Source: an uncultured bacterium (GTDB taxonomy: Bacteria; Babelota; Babeliae; Babelales; Babelaceae). Taken from it: a stretch of DNA of 64,000 bases. Both the position numbers and the translations under genes were made by a program. Below are positions 32,314 through 43,956 of the stretch, piece after piece. Numbering within the stretch: the stretch's first letter is position 1; every line of letters begins with the position of its first letter. The notes under the pieces are model-generated. The model ran no database searches, was not told where the DNA came from, and saw nothing but the letters and a program-made list of their open reading frames with translations. The stretch spans positions 320,001-384,000 of the forward strand of contig OY970209.1 of the NCBI GenBank assembly GCA_963713855.1, read 5' to 3'.

Positions 32314-34848
32314 ATGTTCTTCAATCGAATTATTACGATTTGTACGTTTCTTTTTGCCATAACTGCATTTGCTCAAGAAACGCCAAAACCGATCCAACTT
32401 CTGCCACACCAACAGTATCCGATTGATTATCTGGTCAAGAACAAAAATGCAAAGGGCCTGATTGTCAATCATTATATGGGCACTGGAAAAACTTACCTAG
32501 GAATTGGATTTGCGGAGCGCTTTCCCGATAAGTCCATTGTGATTTTGGCGCCCAGATTTATTGAAGCACATTGGCAACAACACCTCAGAGATTTTCCTGC
32601 CAAGGACCTGAAGCGATACCAATTTGTTTCTTACAACAATGCTCCCAAATTGCTTTTGAACAAGGACCTTAGCAACACCGTCGTAATCATGGATGAAGTT
32701 CATAACCTCATCAAAATGATAAAATCGCCAAACCCAGAGGAAAATCGTCGCCTTAGCGATCTCTATATCCATTTGCGCAGCGCATATAAAATTCTCGCAT
32801 TATCAGGCACGCCGATTTACAACGATGAATACGATTTTGCTTATTTGATTAACCTCATCTCCGGAAAAGATTTGATGCCTTTTAACGAGGAACAGTTTCG
32901 AATTGATTATACACGCATCAAGAAAGGTCGCTCATTTTGGCGCGGCTATGTCTTTGAAAGCAATATCTTAAAGCAGGTCCTTCCGCTGATCGTGGGGGCG
33001 GCCGTGGCGCCACTTGTAATCGTCGCTGGACCGGAAGTTGCAGCGCCTTTGGGAATCGCGGGCGTAGTGGGTGCGGTTCTTATTTTTCCACTGGAAACCA
33101 ATTGGATAGCTCCCATCGAAACACATCCTCTAAGAGATCTCGATGCCAAGAAATTTGAACCCTTCATTTCACGGTACGTTTCATTTTACGAAATCGAGAA
33201 CCTTGACATGTCCGACTTTCCATCAAAAACGATGCACGTCGAAGACGTCGACTACAACACTGAACAGTTCTGGTTCTTTTTGAACTTCGCCGAAAAGAGC
33301 TTAGGAAATAAAGGTCTTGCACGACTGTACAAAGACATCGATCCCAATCTTGAACAAAGCTATTTGACACTAAACACGACCGTGCTTCAAGACCGCTTGG
33401 CAAGCACCATTGGATCTGGACGCGAAATTGGTAACCTTGAATTTTTAGGCGAACACGGCCTCATTGAAGCGCCCAAGTTTGAACGAGTGCTTCGCAAGAT
33501 GCAGGCACAAGGTATGCCCAAATCAGTTGTGTATTCGAATTATTTTGAAAATGGCACTTTAGCCTTCGCGCGCTTCCTCGATCGAAAGGGCTTAAACAAC
33601 GCCTATGCCATTTTGCGACCAGATATGCCGGCCAACACCTTTGCCGAAGTAATTCAAAAATATAACGAGGGCCTCGTAAAGATCCTCTTGATGCATCCAG
33701 AAATCACCGAGGGAATCTCACTCAAGGGAACACGTCAATTTCATGTGCTCGAGCCTGTAAGCAATCTTACCGTTCTTAACCAGGTTGTTGCACGCGCCGT
33801 ACGCTACCAATCACATGCAATGCTTGCCCCTTCAGAGCGCCATGTCGACGTCTATATGTGGAAATCTGTGATTGCTTCAGCAAGTCTTCAAACACTGAAA
33901 TTGCAGAAGTTCAATTGGTTTAAGCGCTACTCGGAAATGAGTGACTGGAGCAATTTTGGACAAGGCATTTCGCAAATCGATAAAAACTATGATCGAAAGC
34001 GACTCTCACCGGATACTCAAAGCTATCTTCATTTGGAATCAGTGAACCAGAATATTGAAAACCTCAAAAACATCATGAAGCAACAGTCGATTGAAAAGAG
34101 TAACGGGACAAAGAAAGCGCAACTTCAGCCAACTACAGCACTCTCGGACGTCCAAACAGCCTTTGAGCTTGATCCCATTATACTTCCAAAGACAAATTTT
34201 CGCGTGTTTTGGAATCTCAATCAAAAATTGGTCAGACACGATCAAAGTCACGCACTTACCAATGGGTTTGGTTTCAACTGTGAAGTTGAAATCCCGCTTT
34301 GGGAGCATCTTTCATCTGGCTTCTATATTGAAGACTACTGGGGACAAAAACTTAAAGAGCCCATGCCCGACCTCATTGATCCGGCTGGGCACTTGTTACG
34401 GGAACATGGACCTCGCCAAAATGTTCTCGGTTTTGGTGGATTTTTGAAAACACAGCAGCGTTTGCCTCCAACTTTTGGCAACTCGGCCTTGATCCTTCGC
34501 GTACCACTGGGCATCGAAATTGTCTTTGGTCAAGCGCTCATTCCACTCATAAAAGATCAAAAAGACCTCGACCAGTTCTTGAGACCTGGTTGGCGATCCA
34601 TCCGCACTGGCTTTTCATCTGCCAAGCTTGGCTATGGCCTAACAAGCGGTCTTTCTGTCGGATTCGAATATTATCCGATGGAATTTGTGGGTTTATACGT
34701 CGATGGTGGTTATCGAGTGTCATACCAGACGTTCCCTATTACTGTCTCGCAAGAAAACGAAACCACGAATCAAAACACGTTTGAGGGGTTTCGCGGGTAT
34801 TTGATCCAGGGATGGAATGTTTCGATCGGTATTAAGCTAACGTATTGA
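32314..34848 (+). CDS. Signal peptide + SF2 (SNF2/NPH-I-like) helicase + C-terminal beta-barrel fusion protein
   Basis: Signal ending AFA; HYMGTGKT, DEVHN, LSGTP, EGISLKGTRQFHVLEP, QVVARAVRYQSH; amphipathic strands ending VSIGIKLTY. Confidence 0.85.
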   Translation: MFFNRIITICTFLFAITAFAQETPKPIQLLPHQQYPIDYLVKNKNAKGLIVNHYMGTGKTYLGIGFAERFPDKSIVILAPRFIEAHWQQHLRDFPAKDLKRYQFVSYNNAPKLLLNKDLSNTVVIMDEVHNLIKMIKSPNPEENRRLSDLYIHLRSAYKILALSGTPIYNDEYDFAYLINLISGKDLMPFNEEQFRIDYTRIKKGRSFWRGYVFESNILKQVLPLIVGAAVAPLVIVAGPEVAAPLGIAGVVGAVLIFPLETNWIAPIETHPLRDLDAKKFEPFISRYVSFYEIENLDMSDFPSKTMHVEDVDYNTEQFWFFLNFAEKSLGNKGLARLYKDIDPNLEQSYLTLNTTVLQDRLASTIGSGREIGNLEFLGEHGLIEAPKFERVLRKMQAQGMPKSVVYSNYFENGTLAFARFLDRKGLNNAYAILRPDMPANTFAEVIQKYNEGLVKILLMHPEITEGISLKGTRQFHVLEPVSNLTVLNQVVARAVRYQSHAMLAPSERHVDVYMWKSVIASASLQTLKLQKFNWFKRYSEMSDWSNFGQGISQIDKNYDRKRLSPDTQSYLHLESVNQNIENLKNIMKQQSIEKSNGTKKAQLQPTTALSDVQTAFELDPIILPKTNFRVFWNLNQKLVRHDQSHALTNGFGFNCEVEIPLWEHLSSGFYIEDYWGQKLKEPMPDLIDPAGHLLREHGPRQNVLGFGGFLKTQQRLPPTFGNSALILRVPLGIEIVFGQALIPLIKDQKDLDQFLRPGWRSIRTGFSSAKLGYGLTSGLSVGFEYYPMEFVGLYVDGGYRVSYQTFPITVSQENETTNQNTFEGFRGYLIQGWNVSIGIKLTY

Positions 34849-34941: not shown

Positions 34942-35298
34942 GTAGCTAAGAGTCAGCAACATACTAACCGAGCCCAAGATCATTGCTGTTTATCTATACG
35001 CACCCCTCTGGCAATAGCCCAGCTTATACATCCTAAACTGCTATTGACCAAGCATTTACCAAACTCTTTGGTATTGCACAAGATTTACGTTGCACTTTTT
35101 TTCCATATGAACATTAGACAGCAGGTAATAACGAGTAAAAAATATCTTGTTTTAACGGGGTCGGAAGAAAACCATTGAAGGTACTTCAATAATCAAAACT
35201 GGCGTGAGCCGGCGGACGGGGCTAAACAACAATCTGTTGTAAGACCTCTCAAAATTTGATACTATCTAAATATATAAAGATTGGGTTTAAGCAGTTCC

Positions 35299-35634
35299 AT
35301 GAAAAGACAAATAATTGAGGCCAGAGAATTTATGAAAGAAATAGACAGCCTCATTGCTAAGAAAAAGCTAATAAATAGCGATTTTGAGACTTTAAAAAAC
35401 TATCTTGCTCAAAATCCTACTGAGGGCGATTTGATCAGAGGTAGTGGAGGTCTTAGAAAAATAAGGTTAAAAGCCCCAGACAAAGGTAAAAGTGGCGGAT
35501 TCAGGGTATACTATTACGATGATGCCAATAATAGAATTATCTGGCTATTATGGCTGCACCCAAAGAGTGAACAAGAAAATATTACAGCTCAAGAAAAAAG
35601 TATTTTAAAAAAGACCATAAAGGAATTGCTATGA
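35299..35634 (+). CDS. Type II toxin, RelE/HigB family
   Basis: NPTEGDLIRGSGGLRKIRL, GKSGGFRVYYY, PKSEQENIT. Confidence 0.92.
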   Translation: MKRQIIEAREFMKEIDSLIAKKKLINSDFETLKNYLAQNPTEGDLIRGSGGLRKIRLKAPDKGKSGGFRVYYYDDANNRIIWLLWLHPKSEQENITAQEKSILKKTIKELL

Positions 35635-35912
35635 GCAAACTTTTTGAGAAGCTTATGAAAGGCCTAGAAGATGTCGCTGACCATAAAAAAGGCAAGCTCA
35701 ATCTACGCACAACAACTATCGAAATTTCCGATTCAGCATCTAAACAAAAAAGAGCATCTCGCAGTTCTTCGACAAGCAAAAAAGCCTTAAACAAAGTTCA
35801 TGTGCCTTTAAATATTGAGATTCCGTCCGGTCTTCATAGAAGATTGCAGGAAGAAGCTTCTGAATGTGGCATAAGCTTTAACTCCCTTATCATAGAAAAA
35901 CTAGCAAGATAA
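35631..35912 (+). CDS. Putative antitoxin: HigA-like N-terminus fused to HicB-like RHH C-terminus
   Basis: ATGA overlap with toxin; MSKLFEKLMKGLEDV...GKLNLRT; LNIEIPSGLHRRLQEEASECGISFNSLIIEKL. Confidence 0.7.
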   Translation: MSKLFEKLMKGLEDVADHKKGKLNLRTTTIEISDSASKQKRASRSSSTSKKALNKVHVPLNIEIPSGLHRRLQEEASECGISFNSLIIEKLAR

Positions 35913-36168: not shown

Positions 36169-36246
36169 TGGCGTCCCTAAGGGGATTTGAACCCCTGTTT
36201 TCGCCGTGAAAGGGCGATGTCCTGGACCGGGCTAGACGATAGGGAC
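36169..36246 (-). tRNA. tRNA-Glu(TTC)
   Basis: GTCCCTA/TAGGGAC acceptor stem, anticodon loop CTTTCAC, GGTTCAAATCC T-arm, encoded CCA. Confidence 0.97.
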
Positions 36247-36256
36247 TTTCAAGAAA

Positions 36257-36332
36257 TGGTGAGCCGCGTTGGATTCGAACCAACGACCCACAGCTTAAAA
36301 GGCTGTTGCTCTACCAACTGAGCTAGCGGCTC
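36257..36332 (-). tRNA. tRNA-Lys(TTT)
   Basis: GAGCCGC/GCGGCTC acceptor stem, TAGCTCAGTTGGTAGAGC D-arm, anticodon loop CTTTTAA, GGTTCGAATCC, CCA. Confidence 0.98.
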
Positions 36333-43632: not shown

Positions 43633-43956
43633 CTATCTATAGGAGACGCGGCTTGCTCTCTTGTTACACTCTCTACCGCGACAACGGTGAGGCGCCAATC
43701 CGCCAGCACGTCCTGCTTCAGATCTTGACATGGTGCCAGCACGACGTCTTGATCCTGCACGGGCAGTTGATTTTGCACGAGTAGCAACTGAGCGTGAGCT
43801 ACGCGGTGCTCTTTCTTCCGTACCAAATAAGTCGCCTAACCAAGATGCTAAGCTTTCATTACTACGGCGAGCAGCTGTTCTAGTAACTGTTCTTCTATGT
43901 GTTCTTGTAGAACCATGTCTGGTTCCTGCATGTTTACGATGTGTTCGGTTTGCCAT
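43633..43956 (-). CDS. Small Arg-rich basic protein with KGG-like motif
   Basis: GGAGGA SD; about 25 Arg in 107 aa; MSRSEAGRAGG resembles the KGG stress-repeat (EAGRKGG). Confidence 0.75.
   Translation of the reverse strand: MANRTHRKHAGTRHGSTRTHRRTVTRTAARRSNESLASWLGDLFGTEERAPRSSRSVATRAKSTARAGSRRRAGTMSRSEAGRAGGLAPHRCRGRECNKRASRVSYR

Follow-up and report, generated by a model that had tools for sequence, protein, structure and literature searches.

A gene joining a predicted exported SF2 ATPase to an eight-stranded outer-membrane barrel, the fused form of a two-part module

What might a helicase-type ATPase do beyond the inner membrane of a bacterium? The question is raised by a gene of an uncultured Babelaceae bacterium (phylum Babelota, or Dependentiae), which lies in a 64,000-nt stretch of DNA that we analysed as a whole and call the window (assembly GCA_963713855.1, contig OY970209.1, positions 320,001 to 384,000). 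A first-pass annotation had read the gene, at 32314-34848 (+), as a Sec signal peptide, a superfamily 2 (SF2) ATPase and an outer-membrane beta-barrel in one open reading frame (ORF), and had suggested that the ATPase is displayed at the surface or drives nucleic acid through the barrel. In the usual view, machines of the Gram-negative envelope draw their energy from the cytoplasm or the proton gradient, the periplasm being low in ATP, and we know of no ATP-driven motor in the cell envelope outside the cytoplasm. We find that the gene represents, in fused form, a module of ~820 aa that is undescribed and has two parts, a predicted exported ATPase of ~600 aa and a dedicated barrel, which occurs naturally both fused in one gene and split over two. 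As to function, we propose a motor that is tethered to the outer membrane, faces the periplasm, is fuelled by host ATP and acts through a hydrophobic hairpin on the membrane or on barrel-bound material; we consider this the most likely reading, at about even odds.

The reading frame and the two-part module

The frame is free of stops over all 844 codons, and the motifs listed by the first-pass annotation (HYMGTGKT, DEVHN, SGT, EGISLKG and QVVARAVR) are all present in it. All of its parts lie on the + strand. By sequence and a hydropathy rule, the chain opens with the Sec signal that had been claimed, a basic and then hydrophobic leader of the signal peptidase I (SPI) type that ends in A-F-A (residues 1-20; 32314-32373). 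RecA lobe 1 (residues 27-200; 32392-32913, by Pfam and alignment) contains the Q motif and motifs I (32470-32493), Ia, II (32692-32703) and III; RecA lobe 2 (residues 385-520; 33466-33873) contains motifs IV, V, in which His461-Pro462 replaces Ser/Thr-x, and VI (33781-33804). Motifs I, II, III and VI are intact, and the residues of I, II and VI are invariant or nearly so across 113 aligned rows. Pfam ResIII (residues 27-167) and Helicase_C (residues 389-498) both match above cut-off, and scans of the ORF with Pfam, NCBIfam and PHROGs gave generic helicase matches only. Two features had gone unnoticed: the altered motif V and, between the lobes, an uncharged two-helix hydrophobic hairpin of ~45 aa (residues 217-265; 32962-33108, from predicted structure and hydropathy). 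Lobe 2 is followed by a family-specific C-terminal helical region that runs to a conserved S-I-E (residues 521-594; 33874-34095), a flexible linker with a predicted local distance difference test (pLDDT) score <50 (residues 595-625; 34096-34188), and a predicted eight-stranded outer-membrane barrel, of a family tied to the ATPase, with a terminal Tyr (residues 626-844; 34189-34848). Consistent with this, an AlphaFold2 model built from 111 sequences has a confident ATPase body, a linker disordered at residues 599-625 and a C-terminal barrel.

The ORF is real, and its signal, ATPase, linker and barrel are all under purifying selection. A relative from another genus (locus L003) is 93% identical in DNA, and ratios of nonsynonymous to synonymous substitution rates (dN/dS) against it are 0.07 for lobe 1, 0.09 for lobe 2 and the C-terminal part, 0.22 for the linker and 0.10 for the barrel, with a range of 0.07-0.14 over the folded parts. 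No stop or frameshift interrupts the linker at 34080-34190, where the first-pass annotation had advised looking for one, and contigs of two other sequencing studies (X1 record 3 and X2 record 11, in a comparison that lists substitutions in part) span this interval gap-free. No RNA dataset was listed as containing the sequence, and sequencing runs X3-X12 contribute small shares. Because the linker is in frame in the second genus and bridged in the contigs of both studies, the fusion is not an assembly error. The fused gene is single-copy in the 1.52-Mb genome, which is one contig, and a search of that genome found no paralog of the ATPase or the barrel. The only indel relative to L003 is one base near codon 274, a deletion that divides the L003 gene into two ORFs; dN/dS is low on either side of it, and it is probably a long-read error.

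The C-terminal barrel claimed at first pass was borne out when residues 626-843 were folded alone from 30 sequences (pLDDT 88.7; predicted template-modelling score, pTM, 0.82). The model has eight antiparallel strands, short periplasmic turns, long outer loops and a terminal aromatic residue. Its best fold match is NspA (1p4t; Z 17.6, root-mean-square deviation (rmsd) 2.9, 150 aligned), followed by a Dot/Icm-associated porin ('porin III', 9nh2; Z 17.1, rmsd 5.4, 179 aligned), with PagL, OprF, OmpA and OmpW also matched (Z 15-18 overall); NspA, OmpA/OprF, OmpW/OprG, PagL and porin III all have the fold of the C-terminal domain described here. Atlas neighbours of the barrel are clusters of outer-membrane protein beta-barrels (0.96), and PF13505 occurs in 18% of the members of the top cluster. 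No Pfam family reached cut-off for this barrel or for any of the 24 neighbouring barrels scanned. The large domain here is N-terminal and an ATPase, in place of a peptidoglycan-binding domain at the C-terminus. A barrel of eight strands has both ends in the periplasm and no lumen for a polypeptide or a DNA strand, and the ATPase should therefore face the periplasm. Judged by the model, the barrel is of the NspA/OmpA class and the ATPase is not an autotransporter passenger.

A homolog search returned 246 relatives. Among the 120 listed, most are ~600 aa long and stop at the conserved S-I-E, and 8 carry a similar barrel; homologs, which the first-pass annotation had allowed might always be split, are thus split in the majority. 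At 32 bacterial genome loci (by record title, Myxococcota, Oligoflexia/Bdellovibrionia, Rickettsiales, Coxiellaceae and other Gammaproteobacteria), a profile built up from the Babelaceae barrel placed a barrel in the same gene in 6 cases and in an adjacent gene in 23 (29/32), and the remaining three loci are cut by contig ends. Because the barrel profile was trained on those loci, we retested the linkage on metagenome loci outside the training set, with duplicates dropped and some loci possibly close to organisms in the profile. A barrel was present at 28 of 34 bacterial-type loci, at all 18 of those with 900 bp or more of sequence on either side, and at none of 43 viral-like loci. The barrel gene occurs in four arrangements (downstream, divergent upstream, tandem upstream and convergent). 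Across 56 chosen genomes, profile matches better than 1e-17 were confined to ATPase carriers; the longer barrels of two carriers give weak matches, as do four non-carriers (1e-5 to 1e-7).

In a quick IQ-TREE tree, from which nine selected proteins with no core by the motif rule were left out and which includes no one-clade test, the fused forms are spread over four separate clades. In the same tree the Babelaceae gene nests among split forms (P0003, L001 and L002), and its linker occupies the position of the intergenic gap and barrel signal peptide of L001 and L002. A third neighbour family recurring across clades was sought at the loci and none was found; an AI-2E-like membrane protein lies 3′ of the ATPase in 8 of 63 loci, all in one Myxococcota clade, and forms a single read-through fusion with it in P0040. 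A complex prediction for the split pair of L001 (ATPase 30-603 and barrel 22-239, with alignments) scored 0.00 in two runs, for which controls were not folded, and weighs neither way on binding.

Copy number and barrel size vary among carriers. At two Rickettsiales loci (L010:3810-5078 and L032:7686-8930) the partner barrel is ~420 aa, twice the usual size, and is possibly a tandem barrel or a barrel with an added domain. A Coxiellaceae contig (L030:2614-8549) has two complete ATPase and barrel pairs in tandem; several pairs are likewise found in G049, G051 and G105, and two or three copies are present in genomes G051, G105 and G064.

Giant-virus relatives and the gain of the gene

The closest solved sequence relative of the ATPase is vaccinia NPH-I (D11; PDB 6rfl chain Y; E 3e-26), which together with the VETF small subunit (D6; 7amv chain W) is also among the top folds, and fold, Atlas and locus searches all indicate giant-virus D6/D11-like ATPases. 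The motifs H-x-x-G-x-GKT, DExH, EGIS and QxxxRxxRxxSH are common to NPH-I, D6 and the Babelaceae protein. Unlike NPH-I, however, the latter has a signal, a hairpin, His-Pro in motif V where NPH-I has Ser, and a barrel partner, and its family has a signal or lipobox and no RNA polymerase context. NPHI_C (PF08469) is absent among Pfam matches up to E 1, and there are no RNA polymerase genes among the neighbours of the bacterial ATPase. Nor does the whole protein match known anti-phage or restriction helicases (DpdE, type III Res) at curated cut-offs: DpdE scored 41 bits against a cut-off of 500, and the ResIII match spans lobe 1 only. A familiar analogy is SecA, an SF2 motor that likewise works at a membrane via an added helical element, but which is cytoplasmic, acts on SecYEG and has a different domain set; we see no specific relationship beyond the shared SF2 fold. 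The folds of the module are known, yet the system lacks the defining features both of autotransporters and of NPH-I proper and matches no curated family. In keeping with the first-pass annotation, which knew of no such architecture, we found no paper on an ATPase-barrel module or a periplasmic helicase among the listings and abstract openings of the open-access literature searched.

The Ser/Thr of motif V in canonical relatives is His in 136 of 143 proteins, with Pro as the next residue in 140, and in motif IVa the canonical Gly and Arg are missing. In a set of 51 distinct proteins from viral loci, which are kin rather than independent events, a hydrophobic insert is present in all 8 without the Ser/Thr and in none of the 42 with it (one was unparsed). 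For Mfd, a published study reports that DNA loading requires the motif V Thr (PMC7385628). A subset of viral proteins shares the hydrophobic insert and the C-terminal region and has neither signal nor barrel; TFIIB, a ubiquitin hydrolase and a SWIB protein are encoded at their loci. A FastTree tree of both lobes, made from 150 of the 176 rows selected, gathers the bacterial proteins into a single clade (support 0.98) that lies within the hairpin group. Read from the outgroups, the direction of transfer would be from viruses to bacteria; most of the distant proteins in the trees carry no taxon label. The lineage appears to have kept ATP hydrolysis while altering one contact with nucleic acid and gaining a membrane element. 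Tentatively, and with slightly less than even confidence, we suggest that a membrane-anchored SF2 ATPase passed from giant viruses to host-dependent bacteria, which added a signal and a dedicated barrel and run it as an envelope motor directly on host ATP.

Some further relatives of the ATPase were noted. A match in the tailed phage PA-SR01 (598 aa) was set aside as a canonical relative, with Ser in motif V, no hairpin and no signal. The viral loci L034-L041, and proteins such as P0164, P0171 and P0154, represent giant-virus-type SF2 ATPases of which we found no description; their RecA lobes are separated by one or two transmembrane-like helices, and their motif V reads His-Pro or Asp-Glu. P0127 (1452 aa) is a tandem duplication of the hairpin-type viral ATPase unit. 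The contig L033, titled 'uncultured archaeon', encodes a canonical giant-virus-type D6/D11 helicase with Ser in motif V and no insert, and may be a viral contig in a bin.

The host's place in Dependentiae agrees with its FtsZ: among the 120 relatives listed for it, all 7 that bear an organism name are Dependentiae/Babeliales. The ATPase gene occurs in 2 of 261 genomes of the phylum, belonging to two different genera. Between these the ORF is 93% identical, compared with 68% for mgtE and ~67% for FtsZ, and the DNA common to both starts and stops at the ORF borders, near the same tRNA-mgtE site. Because the ORF is far more alike than mgtE and FtsZ, and the shared DNA is confined to it, sequence comparison indicates that the bacterium acquired the gene recently by horizontal transfer. 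Its nearest named relatives in the quick tree are from small-genome Myxococcota. Between 21000 and 36500 of the window, no cassette-like repeats flank the gene. In the other genus its final codons and stop recur as an 83-bp second copy (95%) at L003:10571-10653, 2.1 kb downstream of the gene, which resembles a scar left by duplication or insertion.

Topology, fuel and alternatives

Family members share signs of export. By our own hydropathy rule, an uncharged h-region is present in 123 of 143 bacterial-group proteins, 5 having no leader to test and 15 failing the rule; only 1 of 87 distant relatives passes it. A lipobox is present in 71 of the 143, with Asp at +2 in only 2 of the 71, so that relatives bear signals of either the SPI or the lipoprotein type. 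In Escherichia coli, a lipoprotein without Asp at +2 goes by default to the outer membrane. The ATPase is thus predicted to leave the cytoplasm. Its hairpin, with helices at residues 217-238 and 240-265 of the AlphaFold2 model, belongs to a family feature with a median length of 39 residues; in 104 of 110 rows it has no more than a single charged residue.

A possible fuel is suggested by gene content. Of 25 carrier genomes, 21 have a TLC ATP/ADP translocase match, which is strong and full-length in 19, compared with none of 14 controls. A strong TLC is present in 12 of 13 carriers and 5 of 188 others in a Myxococcota sample (n=201), and likewise in all 8 carriers and in 9 of the 123 other genomes in a second phylum (n=131). 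The Babelaceae genome itself has BamA and three tandem TLC-like genes (G000:C1:915360-919525), and Babela is described as having three translocases and no nucleotide synthesis (PMC4378268). Carriers would thus mostly be energy parasites, and since such a translocase sits in the inner membrane, host ATP would have to be present in the periplasm. Lig E, according to a preprint (bioRxiv 10.64898/2026.03.22.713542), is an exported user of ATP and a precedent outside the cytoplasm; the preprint also remarks that the view of an ATP-poor periplasm is softening. Like the Babelaceae ATPase, it is a nucleic-acid-type ATP-using enzyme with a signal peptide; it differs in being a single-turnover ligase that has no motor lobes, hairpin or barrel and that occurs in competent proteobacteria, with no link to energy parasites.

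From the observed architecture, fold, selection, linkage, repeated fusion and distribution we infer a topology, a hairpin insertion, a fuel and a substrate for the proposed periplasm-facing motor. Sec would export the chain and the signal would be removed, as sequence and family pattern predict. The beta-barrel assembly machinery (BAM) would fold the modelled C-terminal barrel into the outer membrane, leaving the RecA lobes in the periplasm, as is established for such topologies; to judge from gene linkage, the split relatives may reach the same position by a lipid anchor or through the partner barrel. The uncharged hairpin would insert into the membrane beside the barrel. Host ATP entering the periplasm would then drive opening and closing of the lobes, as the co-occurrence with translocases suggests, in which case the motor would be active mainly in or on the host. 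Each stroke would move the hairpin and C-terminal helix and so do mechanical work at the outer membrane, perhaps pulling in or releasing cargo of the outer barrel loops, or reshaping the membrane. We favour mechanical work over DNA translocation of the NPH-I kind because the motif V Ser/Thr has been lost and a hairpin gained.

Several points weigh against this proposal. Kinship confounds the TLC link, as does the host-dependent lifestyle in general: TLC would be expected alongside any gene of such bacteria. Four carriers in incomplete genomes (G054, G055, G062 and G064) have no TLC match, the Babelaceae TLC-like genes are divergent (best E 6e-25), most TLC-bearing genomes are without the module, and the module is absent from 259 of 261 genomes of the phylum, in which TLC was not counted. 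Signal assignments come from our own rule-based hydropathy only, and the hairpin could stop in the inner membrane instead. Finally, lobe 1 retains motifs of the nucleic-acid side (Ia and the Ser in 'SY'), and the motif V His could still bind phosphate, so that the substrate may yet be nucleic acid.

We consider it unlikely, though well worth weighing, that the protein is a membrane ATPase delivered to the host, held as cargo on the inner face of the outer membrane and released by vesicle fusion or lysis. The lobes would then work in the ATP-rich cytosol of the host and the hairpin would lie in one of its membranes, a topology like that of the viral relatives, and the barrel loops would be a targeting adhesin; host membranes or the factories of co-infecting giant viruses would be the target. 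The closest relatives, which are giant-virus proteins, indeed share the insert and have neither signal nor barrel, the net-basic hairpin flanks and uncharged turn suit lobes on a cytosolic side, and NspA, the best barrel match, has an adhesin-class fold. Babela, moreover, is stated to export many signal-bearing proteins thought to be active in the amoeba (PMC4378268). However, four independent covalent fusions bind the ATPase to the bacterium's own outer membrane, and no eukaryote-like targeting domain is seen.

A shade less probable still is a periplasmic motor acting on DNA or RNA that enters by competence or by feeding on nucleic acid of the host or of viruses, with barrel and hairpin as holders, much as Lig E, the precedent for extracytoplasmic use of ATP, acts on incoming DNA. 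NPH-I as closest solved relative and the conserved lobe 1 motifs fit such a motor, as do the ComEC-like gene in the Babelaceae genome and the inability of Dependentiae to make nucleotides (PMC4378268). The His-Pro of motif V and the loss of the canonical Gly and Arg from motif IVa do not; no nuclease or competence gene recurs among the neighbours of the ATPase, and a dedicated, co-inherited barrel exceeds the needs of a simple anchor.

If instead the hairpin were a pair of inner-membrane helices and the barrel sat in the outer membrane, the ATPase would bridge the envelope and pull its membranes together. Both helices of the Babelaceae hairpin reach a Kyte-Doolittle value of 2.25 over 19 residues, and the long C-terminal helix and 31-residue linker could span part of the periplasm. 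We nevertheless find this arrangement quite improbable: the family's median hairpin hydropathy is 1.55 with 38% Gly/Ala/Pro/Ser, the turn that would lie on the cytoplasmic side has no basic residues, other fusions have shorter linkers, and the lipoprotein forms have +2 residues of the outer-membrane default.

Surface display in the manner of an autotransporter, or an ATPase-driven nucleic-acid channel, as the first-pass annotation had envisaged, is very improbable, and the modelled fold largely refutes the autotransporter reading. Type Va autotransporters (NalP, Hbp and BrkA) have the same linear layout of signal, large N-terminal domain and C-terminal barrel, here with a terminal aromatic residue and BamA in the genome, but they have 12 strands, PF03797 and a pore helix. 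The present barrel has eight strands and no match to PF03797 (Pfam Autotransporter), and no pore-filling helix is predicted, the linker being disordered. Template-modelling (TM) scores are 0.30/0.27 for the NalP translocator versus 0.46/0.66 for NspA, and autotransporter folds are not among the 50 structure-search rows listed. In most relatives the barrel is a complete separate protein with its own leader, which, like the lack of a lumen, leaves transport of nucleic acid through it unsupported. What stands of the original layout is the joining of a BAM-type barrel to an SF2 ATPase that is predicted to be exported. Chance read-through from one gene into an unrelated neighbour, or an assembly error, might be suspected from the two genes of the closest split relatives, but can practically be dismissed given the in-frame, bridged and constrained linker described above and the joint travel of both parts across phyla.

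If the module was indeed taken from giant viruses and is an envelope motor run on host ATP, no earlier mechanical machine that hydrolyses ATP outside the bacterial cytoplasm would be known, and the viral proteins from which it came would form a class of SF2 motors, so far unrecognised, that work on membranes. A conserved outer-membrane ATP motor would show that host-associated life opens the periplasm to ATP-driven machines. The family also offers a clear case of gene traffic between giant viruses and bacteria with common protist hosts, and flags an unstudied hairpin-bearing SF2 subfamily in giant viruses.

Genes around the locus

The variable region that contains the ATPase gene has tRNA-Glu and tRNA-Lys at its edge (36169-36332, -). 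Between these and the ATPase gene lie, at 35281-35912, a RelE-like toxin and then a HicB/ribbon-helix-helix-like antitoxin; the pair is 89% identical in a genome of the same genus (G001) that is without the ATPase gene. A thiamine-diphosphate enzyme, by eye like benzoylformate decarboxylase, is encoded in the same variable region of this metabolically reduced genome (27733-29385), with no match in the three relatives compared. At 43633-43956 (-) the window encodes a small basic protein very rich in Arg, Ser and Thr, with a composition like that of histones or protamines.

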